64,000 nucleotides of DNA from an uncultured bacterium. Lineage in GTDB: Bacteria; Patescibacteriota; Minisyncoccia; Phycocordibacterales; GWA1-40-21. The position numbers were made by a program, and so were the translations under genes. Below are positions 9,741 to 55,564 of this stretch, in pieces. Below the pieces are notes generated by a model. That model was not told the origin of the DNA, did not search any database, and saw nothing but the letters and a program-made list of their open reading frames with translations. The DNA lies in NCBI GenBank assembly GCA_903822075.1, contig CAIJNK010000011.1:504-64503 (forward strand), given 5' to 3'. Each line of letters opens with the position of its first letter. Position 1 is the stretch's first letter.

Positions 9741-11879
<2,139 letters not shown>

Positions 11880-37408: not shown

Positions 37409-37441
37409 CGCTTGGCAAATTTTGATTGTAAAAATAACAAT

Positions 37442-37472: not shown

Positions 37473-37501
37473 CGCGTTGAGTATTACCTCATTGCTTCGT
37501 A

Positions 37502-39515: not shown

Positions 39516-39568
39516 ATTATGGCAAATCTAAAAAATATTATTATATATTTTTTGTCGAAATTTTGACA

Positions 39569-39598
39569 TAAAAAAACCGGCGTCAGAGTGACTGCCGG
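39569..39598 (-). terminator. intrinsic terminator downstream of 39643..39900
   Basis: CCGGCGTCAGAGTGACTGCCGG hairpin preceded by A8 on the plus strand (T-run on the minus strand). Confidence 0.55.
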
Positions 39599-39642
39599 TC
39601 CGTTCCCTCTAAAAGAAAGAACTATATTTTCGCCTGCTGCGC

Positions 39643-39900: not shown

Positions 39901-39942
39901 GGTACCCTTTCCTTTCTCTATTGTTACTTACCGACTGAACCT

Positions 39943-39975
39943 AGACTATACCATACTTTACAATTTTATGCAAAT
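39943..39975 (-). promoter_or_regulatory. sigma70-like promoter for 39643..39900
   Basis: Minus strand TTGCAT-17 nt-TATAGT. Confidence 0.4.
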
Positions 39976-39979
39976 AAAA

Positions 39980-40010
39980 GCGCCCACTGATTCATCATCA
40001 AAATGGGCGC
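39980..40010 (-). terminator. intrinsic terminator after the ABC ATPase gene
   Basis: GCGCCCA-loop-TGGGCGC followed on the minus strand by TTTTATTT. Confidence 0.5.
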
Positions 40011-40046
40011 AGTCTCTTCGATAAAGAACTCCTCCTCAGCTCTGCA

Positions 40047-41042: not shown

Positions 41043-41052
41043 GTTTGTCTCC

Positions 41053-41892
41053 TTACTTGTCCTCGGGTTTGTACCAAGGGAAACATTTTCGGCGAATGAT
41101 CTGTAACACCAGGTCCATGCTATACGCAATGGCTGAGATGTACAGTACATACGGGATGATCAGAGACATGTTCATGTATCGCTGTTGCAAGTAGATGCGA
41201 TAACCCAACCCTTCGGTCGAGGCCACCGCTTCCGCCGCAATAACGAATATCCAAACCTGTCCCAAATTTACCCGCACCAACTCAATCAACTGGGGCAGTA
41301 TCTGTGGAGACACTACCCGAACGACAATCTGCGATTGCGACGCCCCGAGAGTTTGTGCCTTGACGATCAACTCGTTTGGCACTTTCTCCACGGCTTGTTG
41401 GATGCTCCGCACTAACGGTATGCCGACACCGAATACAATGAGGAAGATTTTCGATCCCTCACCGATCCCCATAAAAACCAAGATGATTACCAAAATGGCT
41501 AATGGATTGATGTTCGAACACAACGTTAAGATGGGTGTAAAAATGGATTTGGCACTGGGGAACACCCCAATAACCATACCCAGAATATAACCCAGCACGG
41601 CCGACACCCCAACACCAATGCCTAAACGGCAAAGGCTCGATTTAGTATCCGTCCAAAACAAGACTTGCTCAGTTCGTTTATCTGGAACCGTAGCTATCTC
41701 CTTCATGGACTCATACATCTGCGACGCTCCAGGCATGAGCTTGTCCTGCGGATTATCCACGTGCCGAATGTACGACGCCGTAAAATATCCGCCAATCAAG
41801 AGGACCAGAGGCAAAAGCCCCAGCACCCTCGAGAACACCGGCCCTGGTCGGGCATTGATGCCCCAAAACATTGGAATTCTAACCTTTTTCAC
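41053..41892 (-). CDS. ABC transporter permease (NitT/TauT family)
   Basis: 279 aa; 6 TM helices, EAA-like loop. Confidence 0.75.
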   Translation of the reverse strand: MKKVRIPMFWGINARPGPVFSRVLGLLPLVLLIGGYFTASYIRHVDNPQDKLMPGASQMYESMKEIATVPDKRTEQVLFWTDTKSSLCRLGIGVGVSAVLGYILGMVIGVFPSAKSIFTPILTLCSNINPLAILVIILVFMGIGEGSKIFLIVFGVGIPLVRSIQQAVEKVPNELIVKAQTLGASQSQIVVRVVSPQILPQLIELVRVNLGQVWIFVIAAEAVASTEGLGYRIYLQQRYMNMSLIIPYVLYISAIAYSMDLVLQIIRRKCFPWYKPEDK

Positions 41893-41955
41893 GCTATTTT
41901 CTCCCTTCCTTTCATACTTCTGACAAAGTGCCCCTACCCTAAATATCTCAATACA

Positions 41956-41983
41956 TTATACACAAAAATTACTTCTTGTCAAG
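41956..41983 (-). promoter_or_regulatory. sigma70-like promoter for the permease-ATPase unit
   Basis: Minus strand TTGACA-16 nt-TATAAT. Confidence 0.45.
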
Positions 41984-41994
41984 GACTCAGGCAT

Positions 41995-42025
41995 AAAAAA
42001 GCTCCCCCGTTTTCTTGGGGGGAGC
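41995..42025 (-). terminator. intrinsic terminator after the substrate-binding protein gene
   Basis: GCTCCCCCC-GTTTTCTT-GGGGGGAGC with A-run before it on the plus strand (T-run after it on the minus strand). Confidence 0.55.
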
Positions 42026-42053
42026 TTACGCTCGAACTTGAGCAGAAGGGCTC

Positions 42054-43130
42054 TTAGAGCTTACCTTCGGCTGCCGCTTTCATGTAGGTTGTGGTGTACG
42101 TGATTTTCACGTTCTTGGGATCACCCAGAACGGTTGCGTCCGGGAACTTGATACCGATCAGATCGGCGCTCTTCGCTCCCTGGCCCAGAAGACCCTGCGC
42201 AAAGCAGAAGTCCATCACTTGCCGACACGCTGTCTTATTCTCCGGGCTGGCCGCAAACGTTGCGCCGTCCTTGGGAGAGTAATACATAAATGTCGTCTTG
42301 AGTTGGGCCTTGAACTCAGCCACTGTGCCACCGGCAAACTTCGCCATGGCTTCAATCGCTTTGTCCGTCTGACTGCCCTGACCATTCATGACTGCCATCG
42401 TCTCGTACCAGGCGCCGACCAAGGCTTTCTTGACCGCTTCCGGCGCATCCTTCCGAATCACCATCAAATCCTGAATTTCTCCAGGGATCTCTGATGAGTC
42501 AAAGACCAAGGTGACATTCGGCAGATTACGGATGTTCATGAGTATTGGGTTCCAGGTGACACACGCCCCTTTGGAACCGGAACTCGCGAAGGTCGCGCCG
42601 ATATTTGCATCAGAAGTGTTAACTTCCTTTACATCGGAATTCTTCATTCCATGTTTCTGCAAACCACGCGACAAAGCGTAACTCGAAACGGAACCCTGAA
42701 CGATAAGTACGTCGCGGCCTTTGATGTCGGTGAATTTCTTTCCGTTCATCAGACCGACGCCGTCATTACCATTACTGTAATCGCCGACCACTTCCACCTC
42801 CGAATCCACTCCACCGACGGCGGGCATGTCCAGCGCATCCATGATAGTCATGGCGCACCCGACGGCTTCACCGGAGGTGTACTGATTGATCGAAGTGACG
42901 TAGTCATTGATGAGCACAACGTCGATCTTGACGCCGAGCTTGTCCGCCCATTTCTTCATGATGCCGGAGTCCACCATATACTGATAGGGCTCCCAGCCCG
43001 TGTAGTGGGACCAGACGTACCGATAGGTCTTGTCCGTCGACGCTTGCTTGTCTGCCGCAACGGCAGGACTCGTAAACACCGACGCCAGAACCGCCAAACC
43101 AACCACGCACAATGTAATGACTTTCTTCAT
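42054..43130 (-). CDS. ABC transporter substrate-binding protein (NMT1/SsuA/TauA-like)
   Basis: 358 aa; signal peptide (ASVFTSPAVAADK); NMT1/THI5-like periplasmic binding fold features. Confidence 0.65.
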   Translation of the reverse strand: MKKVITLCVVGLAVLASVFTSPAVAADKQASTDKTYRYVWSHYTGWEPYQYMVDSGIMKKWADKLGVKIDVVLINDYVTSINQYTSGEAVGCAMTIMDALDMPAVGGVDSEVEVVGDYSNGNDGVGLMNGKKFTDIKGRDVLIVQGSVSSYALSRGLQKHGMKNSDVKEVNTSDANIGATFASSGSKGACVTWNPILMNIRNLPNVTLVFDSSEIPGEIQDLMVIRKDAPEAVKKALVGAWYETMAVMNGQGSQTDKAIEAMAKFAGGTVAEFKAQLKTTFMYYSPKDGATFAASPENKTACRQVMDFCFAQGLLGQGAKSADLIGIKFPDATVLGDPKNVKITYTTTYMKAAAEGKL

Positions 43131-43259
43131 GACGAACTACTCCTTTTCTTTTGCTTCTTTTTCTGCGTTACGTTTTACCTCGGGGAGCAACCCTGTGCTC
43201 CCCGAGGCCTTTCTCTGTTCCTTTTTCTTTCTTTTCTCTGTCTCCCCACGTACCACGGT

Positions 43260-44477
43260 TTAGGCCGCGGCCGTCGTCGGCTCGAGGTCGAGGGTGATCG
43301 CCGGACGTTTCGCGTTACCGCGTTCCATCCGTTCAATCTTCTTTTCGGCCTCATCCGCCATCCGCTTCATCTCCACCATCCGCTGCGCCATCTGAGGCAG
43401 AGCGTCCTGTTTGAACTTGGCCATCTGTTCGAAGGCCGAGTCCAGATCGGCATAAACCGACTTCAATGCTTCCATACTGATGGACTGGGTGGCGGACATC
43501 TTGAAAATTTCCGCTCCCTGAGTCTTGAGCTGCCGCGCGTTTTGCACCATGAGCTCCGCAGTGGTCTGATCCACCGCCTGAACCGAGCGCAAAACCATCC
43601 GCTGTTTCGCCAAGGCCATAGCCAAGACGACAGCGATTTCCAGCGCTCTGACCGTAATGGTCTCGCACCGCTTAGCGCCACGGATAAGCTCACGATTCGT
43701 CCGAATCGCAAACTCATACGACATGACACCCTGCTGGTTGACGGTCAGATTCTGCTGCAGGTCACCGATCCGCTGACGCAAGGTGAAGAGAATTTCTTCC
43801 TCCATAAACTTGCGCTGCTCACTGCCCGCTTCCATCTTCTCGATGGCGGCGGAGAGTTTCTCGTTGACCAACATGAGCGTCTGGATGACTTTCTGCAACC
43901 GCAGAATTTCCGAACGCATCACGATCTGGTCAGCCCGCAAGGTCTCATTGTCTCGCAACAATTCCTTGGCGCCTTCCCGGATCTGCATGACGATCGAATC
44001 AATCACCCCACCCGCGCTTTGCCACCTGGTGAAGTACGAGTTCATGGTCGTGCCCACGCCTGGAATCCAAGCAAAGGCCCTTCCAACGCCGCCCGGCTCC
44101 AAGAGCTTGTAGCGGTTCGGATTGATTTTGTCCACGTTGACCTTCAGGTCAATCAGGGACTTGGCCACCGAGCTGCCTTCCGGCTGGGAAGCCAGAACGC
44201 GGATCTGATCCTTGAGCAAACCGCTCTTGCGCGCCAAGGTTTCTTCAACATTGGCACCGGCATTCTCGACGGCGGTCCGGACTTCCTGCTGATGTGCAGG
44301 ATCCGTAACATCACCGGTGAGAAGCGACGCAGTCCATTCATCGGCCATCTTGACGACGGCTGGATCAACCTGCTGTGACGCAAGCTGATTGGCGCCCACA
44401 AAACCAAGATCACTCTGGATCTGGCTGGCCTGCGGAACCGCTAACGGCTTCGTGTCTTCCTGAACTTGAACTGGCAT
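43260..44477 (-). CDS. telA: toxic anion resistance protein, TelA family
   Basis: 405 aa; entirely alpha-helical/coiled-coil. Sequence pattern and length match the TelA/KlaA/YaaN family, supported by the adjacent XpaC-like gene. Confidence 0.7.
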   Translation of the reverse strand: MPVQVQEDTKPLAVPQASQIQSDLGFVGANQLASQQVDPAVVKMADEWTASLLTGDVTDPAHQQEVRTAVENAGANVEETLARKSGLLKDQIRVLASQPEGSSVAKSLIDLKVNVDKINPNRYKLLEPGGVGRAFAWIPGVGTTMNSYFTRWQSAGGVIDSIVMQIREGAKELLRDNETLRADQIVMRSEILRLQKVIQTLMLVNEKLSAAIEKMEAGSEQRKFMEEEILFTLRQRIGDLQQNLTVNQQGVMSYEFAIRTNRELIRGAKRCETITVRALEIAVVLAMALAKQRMVLRSVQAVDQTTAELMVQNARQLKTQGAEIFKMSATQSISMEALKSVYADLDSAFEQMAKFKQDALPQMAQRMVEMKRMADEAEKKIERMERGNAKRPAITLDLEPTTAAA

Positions 44478-44512
44478 GATACTGTCTCCTTTTTTTCTTA
44501 CGTTTGTTTTCG

Positions 44513-45367
44513 TTACACGGACAAGGTCAGGGACTTCCCCTGGCCGGTGCGTGCCCTCTCAATCAGAGTCACCAACTCACCCATCGCCGAATCCAGATTA
44601 CCCGAAGCCGCTGAGGACTTTGTCCCGCGGATACTGGTAGCCGCTCTTCCCGCCGCATCGATCGCCGTCAGAGCCTGCTCGTTTTGAGCGAGTAAGGCAT
44701 CAACTTCAACCACACTTTCATCAAAGAGCCGCGCTCTTTCCTGAAGTGCCTTTAAAGTTATTGTATCTGACTGCCGAGGAGCTTGAAGAGCTTGGAGGGC
44801 TTTTATCCGCCCCTCCAAATCCTGACGATCAATATCGTCCATATTCGTCAGGATGGTAACGATGCGGTTCAAGTTTTCCAGTCCGGAGTTATAGACTTGC
44901 TCGGCCGTTACTTTATAACGACTGAAGGTCATCTCCGTCACCGAAAGAACCCGTTCGAGCACCGCCAACAGATTTTGAAACTTCTCTTCAAACTGGGGTA
45001 CTTGATCGTAACCCTGTTTGCATTTCAGTTTCTTCAAATCCGTACCGAGCGTGGCGAGCTTTTTCTCCTTCATGATTTCAAACTGTTCGTGGAGTTTCGC
45101 GTAATGCTGTTGCATATACTCGTCCTTCCCGCCGAAAAATTTGAGTGCCCAATTGGTGGCGCCGAATCCGACACCGCCAACGGCAATGATTCCAATAAGC
45201 AAGGCCGAGGCTGGGGAAAAAACTCCCACCGCCACAGCGCCTACTGTCCCTATGGCTAGTGGCCACAAGGTCAAAGGATGCTGAAGCGTTTCGGCTAAAG
45301 CATCTTTTCGGACCGCCCCGTCGCTGAAATCCAGCTCACTTGGGCCGCCCTCTGGAGTTTTCTTCAT
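44513..45367 (-). CDS. XpaC-like membrane protein (5-bromo-4-chloroindolyl phosphate hydrolysis protein family)
   Basis: 284 aa; two N-terminal TM helices then coiled-coil. Classic partner of TelA-like (YaaN) genes. Confidence 0.5.
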   Translation of the reverse strand: MKKTPEGGPSELDFSDGAVRKDALAETLQHPLTLWPLAIGTVGAVAVGVFSPASALLIGIIAVGGVGFGATNWALKFFGGKDEYMQQHYAKLHEQFEIMKEKKLATLGTDLKKLKCKQGYDQVPQFEEKFQNLLAVLERVLSVTEMTFSRYKVTAEQVYNSGLENLNRIVTILTNMDDIDRQDLEGRIKALQALQAPRQSDTITLKALQERARLFDESVVEVDALLAQNEQALTAIDAAGRAATSIRGTKSSAASGNLDSAMGELVTLIERARTGQGKSLTLSV

Positions 45368-45439
45368 GAATTATCCTTTCATTTACACTGTATTTCCTAC
45401 ATGAACGTCAAAGACCATTCATACTTTTTCTACCAGACA

Positions 45440-45467
45440 GTATACACGAAATATTAAAATTGTCAAG
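45440..45467 (-). promoter_or_regulatory. sigma70-like promoter (TTGACA-16-TATACT) for the XpaC-like gene
   Basis: Minus strand TTGACAATTTTAATATTTCGTGTATACT; near-identical to the element at 51687..51715. Confidence 0.5.
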
Positions 45468-45481
45468 TCTTTCCAAGCATT

Positions 45482-45518
45482 AAAAAATACCGTACTCCCC
45501 TCGTGGAAAGTACGGTAT
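45482..45518 (-). terminator. intrinsic terminator after the AAA+ ATPase gene
   Basis: ATACCGTAC-loop-GTACGGTAT with A5 before it on the plus strand. Confidence 0.55.
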
Positions 45519-45541
45519 TAGACCTCGTAATCAGGCTCTCT

Positions 45542-47164
45542 TTACCCCCTGACTTGGGTTTGTTTTTCGGCCGATAGGATCTGGTCCGCAAAGTTCGTGG
45601 TGAAGTCCCGAAGAGCTTCCGCATGATCATAGACCAAATTCTGTTTGTAGATTTTTGTCACCGCACTTACGACATCCGCCACGGTAACATTGTCAACCGG
45701 CACCTTATTCACCAGATCCCTCGTGAGAGCCAGCTCCTTGGCTTCCTCCGCTATCGCCGGGATCATGGCCCCGCTCACAATATCCGCCAAAGTGAAGAGC
45801 GTATCCTGGTCCGAGTCTCGGCGGTGAATTTTGTAAATCACCTTGTCAGGCGAAAACAAATTATCCACCACCGCTTTTGACAACTCATCCAAAGTTCCGC
45901 TAATCGGCACTCCGCGCATATTGTGCTCGAAGATTTGCTTGACCGCCAGTTGATCCGGTCGGCCAATCACAATCCCTTTGTCAAACCGCCCTGGCCGCGT
46001 AATCGCAAAATCCAGAATCTCCGGTTTGTTCGTGGCGGCAATGACCAGTGCTCCGCACTCAATCACGCCATCCATCTCTGTCAGGATTGCCGGCACTATC
46101 GTCTTCAAGACATCACTGCTGATGCCCCCTTCACGCTTGGCCATAACAGCCTCGCACTCATCGAAGAAGATAACCGCCGGAACGCCGTACTTTTCTTTGT
46201 ACTTGCGGGCTCGCGCAAAAACGTGACGAATGTAGGCTTCCCCCACCCCCACGAATTTGTCCAGAAATTCTGGACCGCGAACCAGGATGAAACCCTGCGC
46301 CGGATTTATCCCCTTGGCCTGACAGCGCTTCACAATGGAAGCATAGACCGCCTTGCCGAACATAGTCTTGCTGCAACCCGGAGGTCCGGACAACAAAATT
46401 CCTTTCGGCGGCTTTTTGCTGTAACGGGCATAGTGACTCGGGTGATCCATGATCCCCTCAACTGCTTCCTGCAGTTCCCGCTTGGGTCCGGCTTGGCCAA
46501 AGATATCATCCCAGGTGACCAGGTTTTCTGTCTGGCCAACCGCGAACGATCCATCTTCCAATCCGAAGTTTTGAATGATCACCGACAGACTGGCATCCAG
46601 GACTACCCGGCCGTTGACTTCCAACTGCCCGGCAAACTTCCCGGTTGAAACAGTCCGCAAACCGCTCTGCGCTTGCACGACGGCAAACTCTTTGGCGATA
46701 AGCTGAGTGACAAACACCACCTCGCCGGACGGATTAGCAGATTCCGTGGCAATAACCTTGAAAGTCCTCGGTTCCAACTTCAGAATGTCCCCCGGGGAAA
46801 CCTTGAAATTATTCACCGGCACTTCCATTGTCTGTCCGCTGACATTCACGACGGCCGAGGAAAACGCTTCCACACCGTCAAGCTCCAGATCGCAGGCACC
46901 ATCATCAATATCGGGATTACCGATACGGTAGCGCTGCCTGACTTCTGCCGCCCGGCCGTTAATCGGACCAAACGACACTATGACCCAGCCCGGCAATTTG
47001 GGATCCGGACCAAGAACGGTTCCCGAATCTTTCGGCGCCAGGGCATAGTACTTACTGCCGGACTGGACTCGAACCACTGCTCCTTCCGCCGACAAAACTT
47101 CCGGTGTGGCTTCCTTCTTCTGTTGGAGCAACCGCAAAATAGTTGCGTGTATCAAAGCGCTCAT
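45542..47164 (-). CDS. AAA+ ATPase (classic AAA family) with ~250-aa N-terminal domain
   Basis: 540 aa; Walker A GPPGCSKT, Walker B IIFFDECEA, SRH (ATNKPEILDFAITRPGRFDKGIVIGRPD). Confidence 0.8.
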   Translation of the reverse strand: MSALIHATILRLLQQKKEATPEVLSAEGAVVRVQSGSKYYALAPKDSGTVLGPDPKLPGWVIVSFGPINGRAAEVRQRYRIGNPDIDDGACDLELDGVEAFSSAVVNVSGQTMEVPVNNFKVSPGDILKLEPRTFKVIATESANPSGEVVFVTQLIAKEFAVVQAQSGLRTVSTGKFAGQLEVNGRVVLDASLSVIIQNFGLEDGSFAVGQTENLVTWDDIFGQAGPKRELQEAVEGIMDHPSHYARYSKKPPKGILLSGPPGCSKTMFGKAVYASIVKRCQAKGINPAQGFILVRGPEFLDKFVGVGEAYIRHVFARARKYKEKYGVPAVIFFDECEAVMAKREGGISSDVLKTIVPAILTEMDGVIECGALVIAATNKPEILDFAITRPGRFDKGIVIGRPDQLAVKQIFEHNMRGVPISGTLDELSKAVVDNLFSPDKVIYKIHRRDSDQDTLFTLADIVSGAMIPAIAEEAKELALTRDLVNKVPVDNVTVADVVSAVTKIYKQNLVYDHAEALRDFTTNFADQILSAEKQTQVRG

Positions 47165-47224
47165 AGTCTTTACCCTTTCTTATAACTGACTGACACGAGT
47201 TCATCTCAAAAAACTTCTGCCATA

Positions 47225-47256
47225 TGTATAGCATTTATTATTGAAAAAGTCAAGAC
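47225..47256 (-). promoter_or_regulatory. sigma70-like promoter (TTGACTTTT-N-ATGCTATACA) for the AAA+ ATPase gene
   Basis: Minus strand TTGACTTTTTCAATAATAAATGCTATACA. Confidence 0.5.
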
Positions 47257-47354
47257 TAAATTTTTTATTAAAAAATGCCCAAATATGTAATAAAAGAACC
47301 CGTCCTGCCATCACAGCAAAACGGGTTCGCACTAACAACTTCAGACACGAAACC

Positions 47355-48926
47355 TCAGAAGGTTTCTTCCAGCAGAGATATCTGCACTCGAGGCAAACGA
47401 TAACCGTAAGCGCGATCCGATTCGTCTCTCTCCCGTGGCAGAGGTTTCTCTCCCCCATAACCCACGGATTTGATCCGATTCTCATCTAGGCTGTAAGTCA
47501 CCGTCAGATACCGTGCTACTGCTTCCGCTCGCTGTTGCGAGAGATTCTTGTTGGCATCAGGGTCACCGGAAAGTGACGTATGTCCACCAACCAAAATCCG
47601 AAACGATGGATAGTGTTTCAGCCTTTCCATGGCCGTATCCAACTTTTCCTTCTGCTCCACATCCAGATTGGCCAAACCGGTCTGAAAGACGATCGGCTCC
47701 ACCCGGATGCTACCCACAGCATGCAGTTTGTCCCACTGAGCATCGCTCAACGGTTTAAAACTATGTGCCAAGGCGGCTGTAGCATTTGTTCCTCCAGGAC
47801 TGACCAAGGCCGCAAATCCGTTCTGGATTCCGTTCTTGTAGATTTCCTGAATAAACTGACTATTCATGATCCGGTAAGGATCCTTATCTGGCAGTGGGTT
47901 ACTCTTAAAGTCCCCACTCTCAACCAGAATCGAAACCGTTGAATCAATCGTGTCTACCAGTCCTTGCTCGGCCACCTGACCCGGCCCCGACAAACCAAAC
48001 CACGAGTGACAGTTTTCGCTCAGATTCACCCAAGCGACGCCATCAAGCATTTTCTGGATCGAATCATCCGTGAGCTTAAGCTCGGTATGGATATCCTTCT
48101 TCAGCTCTTCCTGCTCGTCAGTGTAAAACTTCAAAGTTCGGAAGTAGGTCCGCAGTAGGAAATCCACACGCTCGGGATACTTGCTCGCGAACTCGCGGTT
48201 CACGACCAGAATATCCACGATCACCTTGCTCATGCTCTCCGTGCCAATGATCCGACCGACACCAGGGATCTGCAACGCTTTTGACACGTTTGGTTCCCAC
48301 AGGACGGCCACCCGCACTTTCTTGTCCCGGAGCAAGCCCAACGCTTCCTGCGAATCTTTGGTTTTCACTCGCTGTCTTTCGGGTAAATTTTTCAACCCTG
48401 GGACGTTAAAGTGAACCGGCAACGCTTTGAGCAAATGCTCACTCGGCGAACCGGAAGTGTAACCAATGGATCCGTTAAACCCATCCTGAAATGAATCCAG
48501 GTTTTTGACGAGGTTGGTGTAAGCCACCATCGCGTCATCACCTTTTGATTCATCCAGAACGGCAATGATCGTTCCGGGAAAATCCACCGGCACAGCGTTC
48601 AGAATGTACGAGTCCACGGTCACAACCGCAAAATCGTACTTCCCTTCTTTGAGAGCTTGCATCCGAGCCGGATAATCGGCACCGTCATTAACGCCGTCCA
48701 GGATGTAGCCTTCACTCCGCGCAAACTTTTTCATGCGCGAAGAAATTAGCGGATAGTACCCGATCCAATCGTCGTAGGCAATTGTGATCTTGCCTTTGAC
48801 ATCCTTGGCATCACTCGTCGCCACCTGCACTTTCTTATGCAGGACTGGTAACAAGTATTTCACTGCCGGAATAACCAGCACCGCCAGGATGATGAACCCA
48901 ACCACCAACATGGTATTCTTCTTCAC
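47355..48926 (-). CDS. OmpA-domain protein with N-terminal periplasmic-binding-protein-like domains
   Basis: Start set to GTG after GGAGAG (MKKNTMLVVGFIILAVL...); the track ORF starts earlier at 49004, upstream of the predicted promoter. TM anchor, PBP-like region, C-terminal OmpA-like domain (ILVGGHTSLSGDPDANKNLSQQRAEAVARYL). Confidence 0.6.
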   Translation of the reverse strand: MKKNTMLVVGFIILAVLVIPAVKYLLPVLHKKVQVATSDAKDVKGKITIAYDDWIGYYPLISSRMKKFARSEGYILDGVNDGADYPARMQALKEGKYDFAVVTVDSYILNAVPVDFPGTIIAVLDESKGDDAMVAYTNLVKNLDSFQDGFNGSIGYTSGSPSEHLLKALPVHFNVPGLKNLPERQRVKTKDSQEALGLLRDKKVRVAVLWEPNVSKALQIPGVGRIIGTESMSKVIVDILVVNREFASKYPERVDFLLRTYFRTLKFYTDEQEELKKDIHTELKLTDDSIQKMLDGVAWVNLSENCHSWFGLSGPGQVAEQGLVDTIDSTVSILVESGDFKSNPLPDKDPYRIMNSQFIQEIYKNGIQNGFAALVSPGGTNATAALAHSFKPLSDAQWDKLHAVGSIRVEPIVFQTGLANLDVEQKEKLDTAMERLKHYPSFRILVGGHTSLSGDPDANKNLSQQRAEAVARYLTVTYSLDENRIKSVGYGGEKPLPRERDESDRAYGYRLPRVQISLLEETF

Positions 48927-48996
48927 GATTCTCTCCTTTTCTTCTGCTTTTTCTTCAGTCAAAGACCACTTCAACCACCAAAAAAATCTGGTGCAA

Positions 48997-49026
48997 GTAT
49001 ACACCCTTATTAAAGTTTTGTCAAGA
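48997..49026 (-). promoter_or_regulatory. sigma70-like promoter for 47355..48926
   Basis: Minus strand TTGACA-17 nt-TATACT. Confidence 0.45.
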
Positions 49027-49030
49027 CAAT

Positions 49031-49060
49031 AAAAAACCCCGCCAGCACATGCTAGCGGGG
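49031..49060 (-). terminator. intrinsic terminator after the vWA gene
   Basis: AAAAAACCCCGCCAGC-ACAT-GCTAGCGGGGCTC; same AAAACCCC...GGGGCTC skeleton as the cassette terminators at 14.7 and 15.85 kb. Confidence 0.55.
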
Positions 49061-49084
49061 CTCGACTTCACCTCATCATAGAAC

Positions 49085-49804
49085 TCAGTACGTGTCGGCT
49101 TCGGCCATCACACTCTGCAACCCTTCCTCCAGATCCTTCGGACTCTGTGCGTCCTTGTAGATCGTTCGGCCGGGTTGGTTTAATGAATGCTCTGGCCCTA
49201 TCTCGAAACCGATGGTATGAATCACCACCGGCGATTCTCGGAGAATCAGGTTCACCATGTCGGTGGGGTCGTAGCCCATATTGGCCTCCCCGTCCGTCAC
49301 GATCACCAGATGATATTCTCCGTAGCCGAGCTGCCGCCGAGCTTGTGCTTTCAACGACTCGTAACCGATCTTTACAGCCTCCGACAGAGGTGTCCCTCCG
49401 TCAGCCGAAGCCGCATTGACCACCGCAAAGAATTCCTTGCGGTTGTTAACTCCGAGCGGCAACCGCTCAGACAGGCCGTGACCATCAAAGATAGCCAAGC
49501 CCAGACCGGTGTCCTCCGGTATTGATTTGCCGAACTGATTGATGGCCTCTTTGGCCGCCGCAATCTTCCGACCCACCATACTGCCCGAGCAGTCAAAGAT
49601 CAGGTAGATATTCTTGCGCAGAAGATTATCCTCGAGCTTAACGCCTTTGGTATCATCCGCCTTGATCCACGTATCCTTGATCCGCCCCACAGTCTGTTTG
49701 ACCGGAGCAATCGGCGCCGATGGACTTTCCACCGGCCCGCAACCGGCACTGGCGACAATCAGCGCCAAGCCGATCAAAACGAGTTGGCAGACTTTCTTCA
49801 TCAT
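49085..49804 (-). CDS. von Willebrand factor A domain lipoprotein
   Basis: 239 aa; signal peptide with lipobox (LIVASAGC), MIDAS motif DCSGSM, conserved Thr/Asp (VIVTDGEAN). Confidence 0.75.
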   Translation of the reverse strand: MMKKVCQLVLIGLALIVASAGCGPVESPSAPIAPVKQTVGRIKDTWIKADDTKGVKLEDNLLRKNIYLIFDCSGSMVGRKIAAAKEAINQFGKSIPEDTGLGLAIFDGHGLSERLPLGVNNRKEFFAVVNAASADGGTPLSEAVKIGYESLKAQARRQLGYGEYHLVIVTDGEANMGYDPTDMVNLILRESPVVIHTIGFEIGPEHSLNQPGRTIYKDAQSPKDLEEGLQSVMAEADTY

Positions 49805-51528
49805 TTGCCACCTCCCGCCGGCGTGAACACTGATGCCTCCGTATCACCAACGGGAATGAGTTTGAACACGACACGCATGTTCGAGGCCCACTCTTGCTGA
49901 TTCTTTGGACGCACTGGCTCACCATTGACGAGACCCGTCTTCGGTTGCTCAAAGCCGTGACCAACCACCGCAAACTGCGACGGATCCATGACCACGGACT
50001 TGACCTTGCCATAACCAAGCAGACTTTCCCGAACTGCGATTGCTCGCGTCAGGGATAAGTTCTTGGCCGACTGGCGCAGACGGGTCAGGACGAGTTCCTG
50101 GGCACCGGCCGCTTTTTTATCCACATAGGACGTCGGGTCCGAATGTCCTTCGACAGTCAGAATCGCGCCGCCATACGTGGCTGCCAGCTCGATGGCCTTG
50201 TCAAACTCCACTTTGTAGAGGTCGGCATTGAAGGTGTTTTGGTTGGCGCCAAACAGTATTTCGAAACTGAAAATAGCACCATCGTCACCACCTTTCGTCT
50301 TCGCATCGATCACTTTGGCCACTTCAGCCGCCTGGAAACGCGGAGTTTCCACCGCCACCGTCTTGACGAGACCGTTTTTCAACGCCTCGTAATCAAAACC
50401 GGCTTTGGCAATATCCGCTTTCGCCGACATCAATCCAAGGCCAATGAAGGCTTCCTGGATCTCCGTCGACACGGTTTCCAAACGACGCACTTCCGTCGGC
50501 GTCGCGAAGAACTTGACGTTCCCCACAAAACCGGCGTACGTACAGTCGCCATACAGACCCAGAACATCATTCTTGGCTTGATCGCTATCGAGGATGATCT
50601 TACCGGACGCCGCGAGCGTTTTGTCATATTCCGCTTTCGCCGCTACCGGATCAGCCATCACCCGCGAGACGTTTTCTTCCGCCGCCAACAAGGCGTGGAC
50701 GAATTTCTGCACACTATCTTGGTGTGACCCGAGATAGTCCGCCCGAACAACGTAGACATCAAAGATGACGTTCTGCGCTACCTTGGTGGAAAACAGAATC
50801 CGCGCCCCTTTGGCCGAACCTTCCGATCCGTCACCCACTTTGCCACCGCTCGTCAGAGCATTGGCATCGGTGGAGATGACGAAACAGGCGTCCACTTTCT
50901 GATCATCAAGAAGTGCTTGGCCCGGAGTTTCCTTCGAACCAGTCAGATCCTTAACCCAGAGAACCTTCACGTCGGACATCTTCAACCCGGCGCTGTTAAG
51001 CACCGTGCCGAGAAATTCGACATGTGGACCATAAGCCTGCAAGGCAATGGTCTTCCCTTTCAGATCAGCGATCGTCGTAATCCCCGGTTTGACCACCAGG
51101 CAATCCCCACCAGTTGACCGGGTGAGATTGTAAACGACCACCGGCTTGGTCCGTGAATCTTTCGAAATCACTTCCAAGGCCATATTGATCTGACCGAGTG
51201 TTCCGCGCAGGTACGGCGTCTTGCCGCTGAGGAAACCCTCAACCTGTTTCGGGAAGTTGTCCTCGCGGACGATCTTCCATTTCAGCCCTTCTTTGTCGAA
51301 GAGACTGCCCGGCGCCGTATTCACCTGGTTGCCGTTCGCGTAGATTGTCGCGATATCGCCACCCCAAGTGATGATCCGGAGTTCTTGCACTCCACTTTCG
51401 GGCACTGGACCCACGGCTGTCCTTACGACTTCCGCGAGCGAAGGCGACTGCACATACTGCACCGCCTTGACCGACAAAGCTATGAGGCTTGCCGACAACA
51501 CCAAACATGCGATCTTCAGACTTTTCAT
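49801..51528 (-). CDS. OmpA-domain protein with N-terminal periplasmic-binding-protein-like domains (paralogous architecture to 47355..48926)
   Basis: Start set to ATG after AAAGGAG (MKSLKIACLVLSASLIALS); track ORF starts at 51585. Signal peptide, two PBP-like halves, C-terminal OmpA-like segment (LTVEGHSD...AGAQELVLTRLRQSAKNLSLTRA). Stop overlaps the vWA start (ATGA). Confidence 0.55.
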   Translation of the reverse strand: MKSLKIACLVLSASLIALSVKAVQYVQSPSLAEVVRTAVGPVPESGVQELRIITWGGDIATIYANGNQVNTAPGSLFDKEGLKWKIVREDNFPKQVEGFLSGKTPYLRGTLGQINMALEVISKDSRTKPVVVYNLTRSTGGDCLVVKPGITTIADLKGKTIALQAYGPHVEFLGTVLNSAGLKMSDVKVLWVKDLTGSKETPGQALLDDQKVDACFVISTDANALTSGGKVGDGSEGSAKGARILFSTKVAQNVIFDVYVVRADYLGSHQDSVQKFVHALLAAEENVSRVMADPVAAKAEYDKTLAASGKIILDSDQAKNDVLGLYGDCTYAGFVGNVKFFATPTEVRRLETVSTEIQEAFIGLGLMSAKADIAKAGFDYEALKNGLVKTVAVETPRFQAAEVAKVIDAKTKGGDDGAIFSFEILFGANQNTFNADLYKVEFDKAIELAATYGGAILTVEGHSDPTSYVDKKAAGAQELVLTRLRQSAKNLSLTRAIAVRESLLGYGKVKSVVMDPSQFAVVGHGFEQPKTGLVNGEPVRPKNQQEWASNMRVVFKLIPVGDTEASVFTPAGGGK

Positions 51529-51686
51529 TCCGACTCCTTTTTCTCTGTTTCTATTTCGAACGTTTTTCCGACTTGCGTTACTCAAATTTATCTCCTAATC
51601 CCGACCGCTATTTGAGAAACACCTCCTTCTTACTATATTCTATGATTTGGCTATCAAAGAACGTTGATTTATTAATCTGTTAGATA

Positions 51687-51715
51687 GTATACACGAAATA
51701 TAAATATTGTCAAGT
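51687..51715 (-). promoter_or_regulatory. sigma70-like promoter for the PBP-OmpA/vWA operon
   Basis: Minus strand TTGACAATATTTATATTTCGTGTATACT; about 26/28 identical to 45440..45467. Confidence 0.5.
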
Positions 51716-51761
51716 CATTATCATAATGTATAAAAAACACTTTGGTAAACTTTAAAACAAG

Positions 51762-51796
51762 TCAAAAGGGCTGCGACATTGTTTCAGTCGCAGCCC
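51762..51796 (-). terminator. intrinsic terminator after 51837..52643
   Basis: GGGCTGCGAC-ATTGTTTCA-GTCGCAGCCC with A-run before it on the plus strand. Confidence 0.55.
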
Positions 51797-51836
51797 TTCC
51801 CTCTTTCTTCTTTGTGCTTTTCTCCCGGTCTTCCGG

Positions 51837-52643
51837 TTAGAGGTCGAGATTAACCCCTGTCGTGAAGGCAATAGCCTTGCCTCTTGAATCATCATCAGCC
51901 GTGGCGGTGAGCGGTGCTATCCCCAGAACATCAATGACGTTCCAGGTCAGCTTTTTCGTGACTTTGACCTTGGCGCCAAAGTCCAACTGCCCTGACAGCA
52001 ACGCACCATATGGAGCCATTGCGTCGTCCCACTGAAGCCCAATCTTCTCGTAGGCTGTCAACCGCGGACTAAGCGTACACTCAGCATTCACGCTCGGCAT
52101 GATTGTGATCATACCACCTTCAATGTTTCGAATGTCGTGCCAATACTCCATTCGAACTTCGGCCGTGACCGCAACTGGCGCCCCTGCAAAAACCTGACCG
52201 AACAGACGCTTGGTATCAATTGTCCGGCCAAAAAATACATCGTAGGCCAGGGCATCGTTACCATTCATCACGCCAACCGGTAGGCAGTTCCAGTACGCCA
52301 CACGCAGCTTCAGGTAGTAATCTGACGGTAACACAAACGTTTTCCACAAATAAGCATCGAACTCGTCGACACCCTTGTTGTCCGCATCTGCGTCCGCCAA
52401 ATCCACGTACTCATCCACTTCGGCCATGAACCCCGCCGGCAAATTCAAACCACCGTCGAGATAAATGTACGGTTTATTGTAATACATCTGACTCGTGATC
52501 GGAGAGATTGCCTCCGACGAAACCGAAGCGGCCACATAGCCACTGGGCGTCCAACCTTGATCAACAACCGTAACTCCCGCCTGCGACCAAAGTCCGCCCA
52601 GAACCGCCAACGTTACCATTACCGCTATCAATGTACTCTTCAC
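51837..52643 (-). CDS. secreted beta-rich protein, putative outer-membrane beta-barrel (paralog of 58718..59503)
   Basis: 268 aa; signal peptide; alternating amphipathic pattern. Shared blocks with the paralog (GNGNDALAYDVFFGR; EVRMEYWHD; MAPYGALLSGQLDFG). Confidence 0.45.
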   Translation of the reverse strand: MKSTLIAVMVTLAVLGGLWSQAGVTVVDQGWTPSGYVAASVSSEAISPITSQMYYNKPYIYLDGGLNLPAGFMAEVDEYVDLADADADNKGVDEFDAYLWKTFVLPSDYYLKLRVAYWNCLPVGVMNGNDALAYDVFFGRTIDTKRLFGQVFAGAPVAVTAEVRMEYWHDIRNIEGGMITIMPSVNAECTLSPRLTAYEKIGLQWDDAMAPYGALLSGQLDFGAKVKVTKKLTWNVIDVLGIAPLTATADDDSRGKAIAFTTGVNLDL

Positions 52644-52711
52644 GTTTCCTTCTCCTTCTGTGGGATCACCACACTAGTTACTTCCTGGACAACCTTTGTC
52701 CATCTGCCACA

Positions 52712-52742
52712 AGTGTAGCATACTTGATGGTAAAAGTCAAGC
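52712..52742 (-). promoter_or_regulatory. sigma70-like promoter (TTGACTTTT-N-ATGCTACACT) for 51837..52643
   Basis: Minus strand TTGACTTTTACCATCAAGTATGCTACACT. Confidence 0.5.
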
Positions 52743-52765
52743 AAAATAATATATAAAATACCCAT

Positions 52766-52798
52766 AAAAAAACAGGTAGAGATTGCTCTCTACCTGTG
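52766..52798 (-). terminator. intrinsic terminator after 52821..53765
   Basis: AAAAAAACAGGTAGAGATTGCTCTCTACCTG; the stem is nearly the same as the fucI terminator (GGTAGAGATTACTCTCTACC). Confidence 0.55.
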
Positions 52799-52820
52799 CA
52801 CTTAACTGCAACATCGCCGC

Positions 52821-53765
52821 TTACATCTGCTCGAGTAGTTCACCCAGATCCCGAATGGCCAACCCCAAAATGGCGAGCTTCTGGTTCAACGGATTGTCTT
52901 CCGCCGGAGGGACACGGACTACTGCCCAGTCATTCCGGATGGAAAAGTTCCCCTCCTTGGCGGTTTGCGGAATTTCTTCCGCCACCCCGGACCAGAGCAG
53001 ACAATTCATTTGTTCGTAGAGTCTCTCCAGGTACTTCATGTTGTTCGCCACCTCTTGAACATCTTCCAAACTGCCCTGTCCCCCGGGAAGCATGATACCT
53101 TGGTTCACCTCATAGTAATCGAGAAGAGCAGCCTTCAACTTCCGGCAGATCAAGTACAAGGCCTTGAGAGTCGGGCTGGTGATTTTCCCGACAATGCTTT
53201 CTTCGGCTTTTTCATCGATCGGCGGCATTTCCAAACCGTCAAAGGACAGCTCCTTCTCGTCCCTGATCGCAAAAGCCTGCCTGACATCGGAAAAAAGAGT
53301 ATTCGCCGGATGTTCGATCTCCGGGAAAGGCCGATCAACCAGCCCTTTGGCTTTGTAACAGATGATCTGCCACCCAGCCCTCATTGCGGCGCCGGCCGGA
53401 ACAAAATACTCCGCTCCGGTTTGAAAGAGGGTGGTGAAGATACCCGCCGCGTCTGACAACGCCTCAATTCTCGTCTCATGCACCAGGCAATCCTGCTTGG
53501 TTTTGCACTCGTGCATAAGGTGCGCCGCCAGATGAGTTCTTGCGGCCAAATCCTGCTGGACCAAAAGGTCATATGCTCGGGAAAAGAAAGCCCGAACGAC
53601 GGGATCATTCAAAGTCCCCAGAACTCTCTCCTTCTTCGGGTTGAACGGTATCTGCGGTTCCTGGGTTGCCGTTATACTTCCGGCAAAAACCTGTCCCACC
53701 TGGGTAAAGATTCCCGCCTCAACAACCTTACTCGCGGCACCGTCTTTCACTACTGGCTCGGTCAT
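52821..53765 (-). CDS. hypothetical protein
   Basis: 314 aa; high GC; no recognisable motifs; cytoplasmic by composition. Confidence 0.35.
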   Translation of the reverse strand: MTEPVVKDGAASKVVEAGIFTQVGQVFAGSITATQEPQIPFNPKKERVLGTLNDPVVRAFFSRAYDLLVQQDLAARTHLAAHLMHECKTKQDCLVHETRIEALSDAAGIFTTLFQTGAEYFVPAGAAMRAGWQIICYKAKGLVDRPFPEIEHPANTLFSDVRQAFAIRDEKELSFDGLEMPPIDEKAEESIVGKITSPTLKALYLICRKLKAALLDYYEVNQGIMLPGGQGSLEDVQEVANNMKYLERLYEQMNCLLWSGVAEEIPQTAKEGNFSIRNDWAVVRVPPAEDNPLNQKLAILGLAIRDLGELLEQM

Positions 53766-53875
53766 ACGCTGACTCCTTATTCTGTTATGTTCCTTTAGTT
53801 ACACCCAAACAGCTCTATCTGCTTGGATCCTGGACTGGACAATATACAAAAATATGACTTTTGTCAATAGAAAAA

Positions 53876-55564
53876 TTACAGTCCTTTCTTTTTCAAAAAA
53901 AGGCGAACCAAGCGTAATTCTTCAAAGGTAAACTGGCCACCAACTTTTTCTAAAAACTTCATTACCGGTGATAGACGTAATTCCCTATTATCACCGTAAG
54001 TGTCAGTGAAAGCTTTATATATTTTCTTGAATTTATTGAGCGATATTTCATTTTCCAAACCGCGGATATCCAGTGCCGAATCCTCGGTCAAAAGTTTCTC
54101 CAAGTGATCGAGCACCGTACCAATTTTTGTGCCCTTGGCAGCAGCAATTTCATTTAAGTTTAATCCCGCCTCCAAATATTTCCTCGTTTCTTCAAAAGTG
54201 GAGATTTTCGCTTTCTTTACTCGACCACTGGCGGTTCTCTCCGGTGAAATTTTTTCCAAAAACTTTTTTTGCTTTTCTTTTTTCTCGGCATCAGACAAAG
54301 AGAGCATCTCGGCCAAATGTTTGTTGGAAATAATTTTTATTTCTTCGTCAAAATCCAAAACTTCACCCCGGACTTGAGTGGCCATCTCATTCAGACCGAG
54401 CAAAGTAAGACCATCCAAAGACCGGACGCGAGACAGCGCCACATAGCCCATGCCCTTTTCAAAAGATTTTGATAAGTCCACTTCTATCGCATCGAGGCTC
54501 ATGCCCTGGCTTTTATGCACAGTAATCGCCCAAGCCAAACGCAGAGGATACTGGCCAATACTGGCTTTTGGCTTACCCTCTTCCTCAATGATCCAACTGG
54601 CGGGTTTGACATGAATAAGTTTGCCGTAGGAAGTCCGGACAATCGGACCATCCTGATCAAAACCCTCGACCTTACCCAAAGTGCCATTAACAAAGCCCTC
54701 TTCAAAATTATTTTTGACAAACATCACTTTAGCTCCCGCCTTTAACCGCAAAATTTCCGGGGCCAAACAACTTTTTACCAAAGAATCCACAAGCGGTTTT
54801 CGACCCTTACTCTCCATCGAAAATTCCCTTTGCTGACCATGGAGTTTTTGAAGTTCTCTTTGGTTTACAATATCCACGTCAATATTGTGAGTATACAAAC
54901 GAGTAGGCTCCAATCCTTGAAAAGTTTTTTTATCCTGCCGGTCAGTCAGATGTTTCAGCCCTTCACTCGATAATTTGTTCCGGCGAATCTCATTCAAAAC
55001 TTTTAGAAAAGCCGAGTCCGTCTGACGATGCTGCTCCTCCAGATAACAAATTTTAAAATCAGCCTCCTTCCAAATTTCCGCTTCATAAGCAAACTGGGCC
55101 AGCGGTTCGCCACTTCGGGCAATAGGCGGCAGCTGAAAAAAATCCCCGCAAAGGATCACTTGTATCCCACCAAAAGGCAACAAACTGTTTCTCATATACT
55201 GACAAATTTTATTTATCAAATCCAGACGGAAATGATGGAGCATGGAGACTTCGTCAATCACCAAGACTTGCGTGCGGTCAAAACGATCCCGCAAATATTT
55301 CCGCGTTTTTAATTCTTCCAGATCAAATTTGGTCAAAGAATCTTTGATCCCCATCCCAGTCCAGGAATGGATGGTGGTGCCGCCCATGTGCGTGGCCGCA
55401 ATCCCAGTGCTCGCCGTAATACCCACGTCCACGTAATTATCTTTCAAAAAATTAATATACCGGTTCAACAAGTGCGTCTTGCCACTGCCGGCCGGACCGG
55501 TCAAAAAAACATTGTGTCCAAGCTTTAGAATATTCAAGGCTTCATCTTGTGTCATGTCCCTCAT
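53876..55564 (-). CDS. Pif1/RecD-family ATP-dependent DNA helicase with C-terminal HTH-like tail
   Basis: 562 aa; Walker A LTGPAGSGKTHLL, Walker B LVIDEVSML, motif AITVHKSQGMSLD, C-terminal helical region. Lower GC than the island. Confidence 0.8.
   Translation of the reverse strand: MRDMTQDEALNILKLGHNVFLTGPAGSGKTHLLNRYINFLKDNYVDVGITASTGIAATHMGGTTIHSWTGMGIKDSLTKFDLEELKTRKYLRDRFDRTQVLVIDEVSMLHHFRLDLINKICQYMRNSLLPFGGIQVILCGDFFQLPPIARSGEPLAQFAYEAEIWKEADFKICYLEEQHRQTDSAFLKVLNEIRRNKLSSEGLKHLTDRQDKKTFQGLEPTRLYTHNIDVDIVNQRELQKLHGQQREFSMESKGRKPLVDSLVKSCLAPEILRLKAGAKVMFVKNNFEEGFVNGTLGKVEGFDQDGPIVRTSYGKLIHVKPASWIIEEEGKPKASIGQYPLRLAWAITVHKSQGMSLDAIEVDLSKSFEKGMGYVALSRVRSLDGLTLLGLNEMATQVRGEVLDFDEEIKIISNKHLAEMLSLSDAEKKEKQKKFLEKISPERTASGRVKKAKISTFEETRKYLEAGLNLNEIAAAKGTKIGTVLDHLEKLLTEDSALDIRGLENEISLNKFKKIYKAFTDTYGDNRELRLSPVMKFLEKVGGQFTFEELRLVRLFLKKKGL

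Follow-up and report, generated by a model that had tools for sequence, protein, structure and literature searches.

The closest published parallel to the system described here is an operon predicted by comparative genomics in Candidatus Handelsmanbacteria (OGG56892.1), which codes for PspA, a SIG+PBPB+OmpA protein, a permease, an ABC ATPase, a SIG+TM+Snf7 protein and an inactive-AAA + AAA protein, and for which ATP-dependent membrane remodelling linked to solute transport was proposed (Ravi et al. 2024, PMC11237479). We describe here a nine-gene module from an uncultured bacterium (GTDB lineage Patescibacteriota; Minisyncoccia; Phycocordibacterales; GWA1-40-21), which lies in a stretch of 64,000 nucleotides (contig CAIJNK010000011.1, positions 504 to 64,503; hereafter the window, in whose own numbering its coordinates are given). 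The module encodes a TelA-family protein, a membrane protein that we call P2, an AAA+ ATPase, two fusions of a solute-binding protein (SBP) with an OmpA-like domain, a lipoprotein with a von Willebrand factor A (vWA) domain, and an ABC importer. When its gene content is set against the published architecture string, both prove to be co-oriented clusters combining a helical stress protein, a transmembrane (TM) helical protein, a classical AAA+ domain, an ABC permease with its ATPase, and a binding-protein-OmpA fusion. They differ in that the window module has TelA in the place of PspA, a single-AAA protein of the Mpa/ARC type with an OB ring instead of the inactive-AAA + AAA tandem, and two SBP-OmpA proteins, a vWA lipoprotein with a metal ion-dependent adhesion site (MIDAS) and a separate free binding protein. 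P2, moreover, has no detectable similarity to E. coli PspA or yeast Snf7, and can be compared with the SIG+TM+Snf7 protein by architecture string alone. The module is a variant of a theme so far known only from genomic prediction.

A second point of comparison is the XpaC-TelA (YaaN) dyad of the Firmicutes. XpaC consists of N-terminal TM helices and a cytoplasmic helical part, and its gene lies directly upstream of telA; on plasmid RK2, TelA is found with TelB (KlaB/KlaC). Experiments link the Firmicute pair to the way cells tolerate membrane-active agents and organise phospholipid domains: deletion of xpaC in Enterococcus faecium alters daptomycin binding and phospholipid microdomains only with an intact telA (PMC6811118), and the XpaC-TelA operon of Listeria and Bacillus responds to membrane-active peptides (PMC12791056). 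In the window a telA-family gene likewise directly follows a gene whose predicted product is a small membrane protein comprising TM helices and a helical domain. However, the XpaC model of Pfam picks up none of 37 diverse P2 members at E<=1 (HMMER filters dropping most matches above about 0.1), and the Firmicute pair stands alone, without the SBP-OmpA/vWA trio, the ABC importer or the AAA+ protein.

The first-pass annotation of this DNA had described six consecutive co-oriented genes at 43260-51585, labelled TelA, XpaC, AAA+ ATPase, PBP-OmpA, vWA lipoprotein and PBP-OmpA, as a candidate envelope-stress or toxic-anion response module. The six are indeed present as minus-strand open reading frames (ORFs; 43260-44477, 44513-45367, 45542-47164, 47355-49004, 49085-49804 and 49801-51585), and five of the six labels held in searches with hidden Markov models (HMMs), that of the second OmpA fusion weakly. 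The extent given to the cluster proved too narrow, as the genes at 40047-43130 (SBP, permease and ABC ATPase) belong to the conserved unit; that account accordingly left out both a dedicated ABC importer and the GC-rich island which carries the cluster. The unit consists of nine genes and spans approximately 40047-51713. Its features, from the upstream end and with the island last, are as follows:

51686-51713, minus strand: promoter-like site TTGACA-16-TATACT of SBP-OmpA#2, the likely start of the module
49801-51528, minus strand: SBP-OmpA#2, with a predicted signal or anchor helix, an NMT1/SsuA-type Venus-flytrap domain and a divergent OmpA-like C-terminus
49085-49804, minus strand: vWA lipoprotein with an intact MIDAS site (VWA HMM, PF00092, E = 5.6e-11)
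47355-48926, minus strand: SBP-OmpA#1, with a predicted uncleaved N-terminal TM anchor, a NitT/TauT-type binding domain and an OmpA-like peptidoglycan-binding domain
45542-47164, minus strand: Mpa/ARC-like AAA+ unfoldase, predicted from PF00004, TIGR03689, AlphaFold2 and Foldseek
44513-45367, minus strand: P2, with a TM hairpin and a cytoplasmic helical domain of about 200 residues, predicted from hydropathy and AlphaFold2
43260-44477, minus strand: TelA-family protein, predicted to be cytoplasmic and helical (PF05816, E = 1.5e-50)
42054-43130, minus strand: secreted NitT/TauT solute-binding protein of the TIGR03427 ('urea-carboxylase-associated') type (E = 2.2e-128)
41053-41892, minus strand: ABC permease (BPD_transp_1, E = 6e-19)
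40047-41150, minus strand: ABC ATPase (ABC_tran, E = 1.2e-24)
36000-53800, no strand: GC-rich island with the module and four non-conserved extra genes, from the GC profile

Three of these boundaries depend on the choice of start codon. SBP-OmpA#2 likely begins at the ATG at 51528 (575 residues), which is preceded by an AAGGAG Shine-Dalgarno sequence, the frame remaining open back to 51585, and SBP-OmpA#1 likely begins at the GTG at 48926 (523 residues). The ABC ATPase probably starts near 41040; the listed ORF overlaps the permease gene, and the orthologues are 325-332 residues long. The ATGA overlap between the stop codon of SBP-OmpA#2 and the ATG of the vWA gene, which had been pointed out earlier, can be read directly in the sequence (...ggcaaATGAtgaag).

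We traced the relatives of the AAA+ protein and of P2 to long contigs to read their gene neighbourhoods. All the traced relatives of P2 and of the full-length AAA+ subfamily show the identical nine-gene order. The genes are thereby found linked elsewhere: in 8 of 8 GTDB loci, derived from metagenome-assembled genomes (MAGs) of Paceibacterota, other Patescibacteria, Limisphaerales, Verrucomicrobiales and Verrucomicrobiia, the nine genes occur in one order, with the set ending at the contig edge in two of them (the longest contigs measure 790 kb and 402 kb). With SBP-OmpA#1 as the anchor, a scan of metagenome contigs recovered 243 relatives, and component counts were taken from the 80 best loci. 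Among the loci assessable for the respective component, SBP-OmpA#2 lies upstream of the anchor in 45 of 46 and the vWA gene in 61 of 64, P2 lies downstream of it in 62 of 68, TelA follows P2 in 41 of 52, the free SBP is present in 37 of 43 and the ABC genes in 33 of 37, and the AAA+ gene stands between SBP-OmpA#1 and P2 in 14 of 60. In all, more than 90 genomes and metagenome contigs, spread over several bacterial phyla and including culturable Vibrio, keep the gene order. Such sharing of gene order, in all eight GTDB loci and most of the 80 metagenome loci, is far above chance expectation, and no description of this exact combination is to be found in the searchable literature, in keeping with the earlier remark that it was not a recognised one.

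The variants among these loci are as informative as the complete sets. Six Vibrio plasmids (including those of V. rotiferianus, pAM7, V. alfacsensis, V. penaeicida and Vibrio sp. 04Ya108) carry the module without the AAA+ gene, in the order ABC ATPase, SBP-OmpA#2, vWA, SBP-OmpA#1, P2, TelA, SBP and permease. AAA-less modules are also present in Gammaproteobacteria, in many metagenome contigs and in a Sungbacteria-type locus (L019), and one Gammaproteobacteria MAG has a minimal version with SBP-OmpA#2, vWA, SBP-OmpA#1 and P2 only. Based on the component counts and on these variants, SBP-OmpA#2, the vWA lipoprotein, SBP-OmpA#1 and P2, that is to say an exported trio and one membrane protein, form the near-invariant core of the module. 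TelA and the NitT/TauT-type ABC importer are the usual partners of this core, and the AAA+ protein is an addition specific to a clade of Patescibacteria and Verrucomicrobiota to which the window belongs.

Several further genes recur in or beside the module. Downstream of the AAA-less module of L019 (8095-10867) there is a 596-residue SBP_bac_11-vWA fusion followed by a second P2 paralogue, which independently ties binding-protein, vWA and P2 functions together. A gene for a 2-oxoglutarate-Fe(II) dioxygenase (PF10014, E = 7.9e-28) is inserted between the vWA and SBP-OmpA#1 genes in a Verrucomicrobiae locus (L011, 5773-6684), and the same insertion is seen in metagenome loci L024, L027, L030 and L035. 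An ORF of about 373 residues with no Pfam match, 57-63% identical between loci, is found near the module in nine loci, mostly at either end (L102, 6097-7218; L054, L090, L065, L099, L082, L093, L084 and L033), and may be an accessory component. Some Paceibacterota loci have a DUF4342 gene immediately upstream of the module, in either orientation (L001, 5194-5451; L003, 4339-4698); it is not present in the window. A PspA, YqiJ and Band7/flotillin cluster is directly upstream of the module and co-oriented with it in a Gammaproteobacteria MAG (L101, 3435-7150), and a fusion of seven TM helices with a spermine synthase, together with a sigma-54 activator, is downstream of the module in a second gammaproteobacterial locus, L102 (16575-20494). 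Both sets of neighbours are hallmarks of published phage-shock-protein neighbourhoods and fit an envelope-stress theme; we rejected them as a general feature of the module, each being found in one locus.

The TelA assignment is firm, with a PF05816 score of 172.6 bits against a cut-off of 30 over profile positions 15-332 of 332. P2 (284 residues in the window) is the less familiar member of the pair. Its earlier label as XpaC did not survive: the window protein matches no Pfam or NCBIfam model, the XpaC model giving nothing at E<=10, and what it shares with XpaC is its architecture and its position upstream of telA. Likewise, the 37 diverse P2 members have no NCBIfam match and no consistent Pfam or NCBIfam family among them, and the Snf7 and PspA models were not reported. 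Profile comparison with hhalign gave probabilities of 0.5% for E. coli PspA and 0.1% for yeast Snf7 against the P2 profile, and of 0.6% for PspA against the TelA profile, with the single-sequence templates (validated with Pfam) limiting sensitivity in each case; the comparison of the P2 and TelA profiles was negative. In light of these negative HMM and hhalign searches we rejected the identification of P2 as an XpaC, a PspA, an Snf7 or a TelA paralogue. Sequence searches of the PDB found no relative of solved structure for TelA or P2.

P2 is nonetheless a large family lacking a Pfam or NCBIfam model rather than a small orphan one, as judged from a profile search in which, counted as representatives of 50%-identity clusters, 827 sequences scored E<=1e-3 and 528 scored E<=1e-10. 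The matches listed are mostly 260-300 residues long and align nearly end to end, and a 257-residue Vibrio protein matched the P2 profile with an hhalign probability of 97%. The P2 gene always follows either SBP-OmpA#1 or the AAA+ gene and, in most loci, precedes TelA. Hydropathy analysis predicts a TM hairpin, rich in glycine, at about residues 31-75, AlphaFold2 predicts helices with confidence over residues 81-275, and the hydropathy profile taken with the positive-inside rule would place both ends of the protein in the cytoplasm. The sole recurring weak signal, which we treat as a lead, is a match to positions 456-567, in the C-terminal part, of the dynamin-like LeoBC model of PADLOC, obtained with 16 of the 37 members (best E = 8.9e-8).

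The AAA+ protein was correctly recognised as a classic member of its superfamily (PF00004, E = 1.7e-24). Its N-terminus of about 250 residues had been left unassigned, and it can in fact be assigned to a double OB fold of the Mpa/ARC type located behind a new beta domain. Residues 106-509 match TIGR03689, the NCBIfam model of Mpa/ARC, with E = 3.3e-73 and 247.1 bits, below the equivalog cut-off of 504.75. In the AlphaFold2 model (predicted local distance difference test score 85.8) an all-beta domain at about residues 1-95 is followed by OB segments at 100-141 and 149-201 and by a classical AAA module with a beta-hairpin insertion in its C-terminal region. The 30 best Foldseek matches of this model are all Mpa chains, over 459-489 alignment columns and with E-values down to 6.5e-32; the best entries are 7PXD, 7PX9, 5KWA and 5KZF (463-489 columns). 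In the alignment, conservation covers the Walker A and B motifs, the FVG pore loop and the arginine fingers. Proteasome docking of such ATPases uses a C-terminal GQYL or HbYX motif, and Pup is received by a coiled coil. The AAA+ proteins of the module end in ...QVRG, ...QIKT or ...QAQV, with no penultimate tyrosine and neither an HbYX nor a GQYL motif. The protein thus shares with actinobacterial Mpa/ARC (TIGR03689; 5KWA, 5KZF, 7PX9) the double OB fold, the classical AAA module and the beta insertion in the C-terminal region, and differs from it in its sub-equivalog score, in having an all-beta domain in place of the Pup-binding coiled coil, in the missing GQYL/HbYX tail and in the location of its gene inside an envelope cluster rather than a Pup-proteasome locus. 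As modelled, it is an Mpa-like unfoldase devoid of the Pup-receptor coiled coil and of the docking tail.

This identification also bears on the pairing of vWA with AAA+ proteins to which the first-pass annotation had appealed. In the sense of a MoxR-vWA chaperone pair we rejected it: the AAA+ protein resembles Mpa and falls in the classical clade, the vWA lipoprotein is an exported one, and the AAA+ gene is missing from most modules, occurring in only 14 of the 60 assessable loci. A paralogous Mpa-like AAA+ family without the first approximately 100 residues was additionally observed in loci that are at least partly from Patescibacteria (L006, L007 and L008, at about 9700-12300). This family has a small fixed neighbourhood of its own: in L006 and L007 an upstream ORF of about 98 residues overlaps the start of the AAA+ gene by 4 nucleotides, and downstream of the AAA+ gene comes an ORF of about 60 residues and then, in L007 and L008, the gene of a DUF1360 protein. 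Some other putative Patescibacteria loci have a shorter Mpa-like paralogue close by.

Of the proteins in the exported trio, SBP-OmpA#1 combines a well-supported OmpA domain (PF00691, E = 4.1e-16, 59.6 bits against a cut-off of 27.2), in which the motif GHT..G....N..LS..RA is conserved, with a binding domain matching SsuA_fam (E = 1e-9). Its homologues number 693 at E<=1e-20 among the candidates scored, and those with names come from Paceibacterota, Verrucomicrobiae, Gammaproteobacteria, Desulfobacteraceae, Planctomycetes and Pseudomonadota. SBP-OmpA#2 has one hydrophobic segment (ORF residues 18-45, from hydropathy) and a binding domain (NMT1, E = 1.1e-10; SsuA_fam, E = 9e-12). While both binding domains and the first OmpA domain of the two proposed fusions are borne out, the second OmpA call is weak, its match (E = 1e-3, 19.8 bits) falling below the same Pfam cut-off of 27.2; an hhalign comparison of this C-terminus with the OmpA domain of SBP-OmpA#1 gave E = 9.6e-5 and a probability of 58%, the alignment containing an insertion of 16 residues. 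As proposed, the vWA protein is a lipoprotein: it has a signal and lipobox (...VASAGC), most of 13 orthologues have a cysteine at the lipobox position, and the MIDAS residues DxSGSM (DCSGSM), GGTPL and VTDG are invariant in all 13. We infer that the uncleaved TM helix of SBP-OmpA#1 and the lipid anchor of the vWA protein attach the trio to the membrane, and that the OmpA-like domains would attach it to peptidoglycan.

The joint presence of TelA and a vWA protein had suggested an analogy with Ter systems and TerY, and in such systems the two do co-occur (PMC7824862). As an account of the window module, in which the vWA protein would take the role of TerY in a toxic-anion (tellurite) system, this has a bona fide TelA and the said co-occurrence in its favour. 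However, the Pfam annotation of loci L001-L005, L019, L020, L101 and L102 contains no TerD, TerB, TerC, TerZ or PP2C/kinase genes, and no Ter family was found among the nine cluster and flanking proteins of the window scanned with Pfam. The vWA protein, furthermore, is an exported lipoprotein and not a cytoplasmic TerY, the PADLOC TerY model matching it with E = 0.0046. We therefore consider the Ter-type reading largely refuted and extremely unlikely. Of the envelope-stress or toxic-anion proposal this leaves a conserved, envelope-associated neighbourhood around TelA, and a candidate envelope-stress module is the most reasonable reading of it.

The remaining three genes encode by their domains a standard three-gene NitT/TauT importer (the free SBP reaches 428.1 bits against a TIGR03427 cut-off of 333.9), and the position of the permease gene is conserved in related loci. 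Patescibacteria depend on imported metabolites, and the cluster could serve nutrient scavenging, with wall-anchored SBPs capturing a scarce solute and passing it to the free SBP and the importer, and TelA, P2 and the AAA+ protein shielding membrane or proteome against a toxic or chaotropic import, for example guanidinium. Three NitT/TauT-type binding domains and a complete importer in one cluster, as well as a free SBP above its family cut-off, speak for this, and GimA, a binding protein of the same transporter family, binds guanidine with high affinity (dissociation constant about 97 nM), guanidine being toxic above millimolar levels (PMC12704784). The free SBP, permease and ATPase resemble GimABC and the TIGR03427 transporters in forming a three-gene importer; unlike these, they have neither urea or guanidine catabolic genes nor a riboswitch nearby, and they are accompanied by two further divergent binding domains tethered to membrane and wall. 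In addition, L020 and 4 of the 37 assessable loci have the core but no ABC transporter, the three binding domains are highly divergent, and the vWA lipoprotein and P2 are left unexplained. We regard scavenging as the principal function as rather unlikely, and prefer to see the importer as a partner of a candidate envelope-stress module.

Promoters and terminators were sought as consensus matches only. Promoter-like sites (TTGACA, a spacer of 16-17 nucleotides and TATACT or TATAAT) precede SBP-OmpA#2, SBP-OmpA#1 (49024-48996), P2 (45466-45439) and the permease gene, the last being a perfect TTGACA-16-TATAAT (41982-41955); the AAA+ gene is preceded by a similar TTGACT...TATACA-like sequence. Terminator-like hairpins follow the vWA, SBP-OmpA#1, AAA+ and free SBP genes, those flanking SBP-OmpA#1 lying at 49063-49034 and 47328-47296, and the gene upstream of SBP-OmpA#2 also ends in one. 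The promoter regions of SBP-OmpA#2 (51682-51719) and P2 (45435-45472) are 89% identical over 38 nucleotides, spacer included, and that of the permease gene (41951-41988) is a weaker copy of them. Such near-identity hints at a common operator or co-regulation.

In the window the module is embedded in a sharply bounded island (36.0-53.8 kb) with a GC content of 0.50-0.53 against 0.43 in the flanks. The island holds four extra genes which were not found in the related loci, namely a 410-residue ORF with no Pfam match (36077-37309), a FucI-family isomerase (37502-39304), a signal-peptide protein (51837-52643) and a 314-residue ORF (52821-53765), and at its edge lies the gene of a PIF1-like helicase with an HTH_40 domain (53876-55564). 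Elsewhere the contig carries genes in 90%-identity clusters named RNA polymerase beta' (rpoC) and DNA gyrase subunit B (gyrB). No convincing att-like direct repeats were detected at about 36.0 and 53.8 kb, and there are no tRNA genes in the window. A 60-nucleotide direct repeat, 97% identical between its copies (37346-37405 and 39453-39512), is present just upstream of each of two sugar-isomerase-like genes; it matches no Rfam family and may be a shared leader or regulatory element.

In Patescibacteria loci generally, the GC content of the cluster exceeds that of its flanks by 0.02-0.13, with the largest difference in L001 (0.446 vs 0.33), and in Verrucomicrobiota loci it is close to that of the flanks, within about 0.06. 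In neighbour-joining trees Verrucomicrobiota sequences are placed among Patescibacteria ones, and the nearest relatives of the window's cluster genes are from Paceibacterota, which would make the host a Paceibacterota-like bacterium. From the GC contrast and the tree placement we take horizontal transfer of the cluster to be evident, and the copy in the window was probably acquired in this way; composition and trees disagree on the donor.

Such mobility raises the possibility of a mobile conflict or anti-phage system, in which sensing of an event at the cell surface would trigger a membrane-directed response through P2 and TelA. Apart from the signs of transfer across phyla, the GC-anomalous island and the carriage on Vibrio megaplasmids, this is favoured by the weak P2 matches to LeoBC described above and to PDC-S37 (7 of 37), and by the proposal that TelA and Ter components hinder the entry of phage or xenobiotics (PMC7824862). 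However, PADLOC-DB 2.0 gave no system-level match for the window proteins: beyond generic domains (IetA and TRIP13 on the AAA module, ZorB on the OmpA domain) there was LeoBC on P2 at E = 1.2e-5. A binding-protein-dependent importer is atypical of defence systems, most related loci lie outside recognisable defence islands, and no relative of TelA is found among 50,697 phage records. On balance we judge a primary anti-phage role to be very unlikely.

Returning to the envelope-stress reading, we propose that the module couples TelA, as a membrane-stress effector, to a sensing or uptake apparatus tethered to the wall. In this model SBP-OmpA#1, SBP-OmpA#2 and the vWA lipoprotein would assemble within the wall zone into a complex fastened to the cytoplasmic membrane as well as to peptidoglycan, which would bind a small polar solute or report the state of the connection between membrane and wall. 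The complex would signal to the P2 hairpin, and because P2 is predicted to have essentially no extracytoplasmic part this coupling would have to run through contacts between TM helices. The cytoplasmic domain of P2 might then gate TelA at the membrane, by analogy with the influence of XpaC on TelA-dependent phenotypes in Firmicutes. What the importer carries would be this solute or one related to it, perhaps a nitrogen compound resembling guanidine or urea. Where there is an AAA+ protein, it would reset the system by unfolding P2/TelA assemblies or taking them apart, or by extracting P2. We hold this relay in its full form to be tentative, possible but somewhat short of probable.

A number of observations weigh against it. 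P2 has no homology to XpaC, PspA, Snf7 or TelA detectable with HMMs or hhalign, and a Foldseek search of its model against the PDB returned nothing significant (CdvB, E = 0.23 with a TM-score of about 0.2). TelA is not downstream of P2 in 11 of the 52 assessable loci, one of which (L041) has it upstream, and the ABC genes are missing from 4 of 37, so that neither TelA nor the importer genes are essential to the core. A shared ligand is not implied, as the three binding domains are at most 26% identical in pairwise comparison, and no guanidine riboswitch, nor any Rfam family at gathering score, is present in the window. The internal promoter-like and terminator-like sites suggest that the module is made up of several, possibly co-regulated, transcription units and not of one operon. 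The adjacency to PspA and flotillin genes is limited to one of about 100 loci. The links between P2 and TelA, between P2 and the SBP-OmpA proteins, and between the AAA+ protein and its substrates are drawn from gene order alone, and the mechanism for every component of the module is a prediction from sequence, model and analogy.

A bolder version of the same proposal would make P2 and TelA a new membrane-remodelling or repair machine of the cytoplasmic face, analogous but not homologous to PspA or ESCRT-III/Vps4, commanded by a peptidoglycan-tethered Venus-flytrap/vWA sensor and disassembled, in Patescibacteria and Verrucomicrobiota, by a proteasome-free Mpa-like OB-ring unfoldase. We consider this quite unlikely. 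If true, it would define a new class of trans-envelope stress system that has spread horizontally between diderm bacteria and Patescibacteria.

TelA proteins are widespread and affect tolerance to daptomycin, nisin and tellurite, and to our knowledge they have neither a known mechanism nor a solved structure. They are now placed in a fixed, multi-phylum context of the new membrane protein family P2, two wall-tethered SBPs, a vWA lipoprotein and an importer, which yields concrete hypotheses on the stimulus and binding partners of TelA, and because culturable Vibrio carry versions of the module on plasmids, its function is within reach of genetics and biochemistry. The module further points to the recruitment of an Mpa/ARC-type unfoldase, without the proteasome-docking signature, to an envelope system, and it is a documented case of an envelope apparatus anchored to peptidoglycan that has passed between diderm lineages and Patescibacteria.

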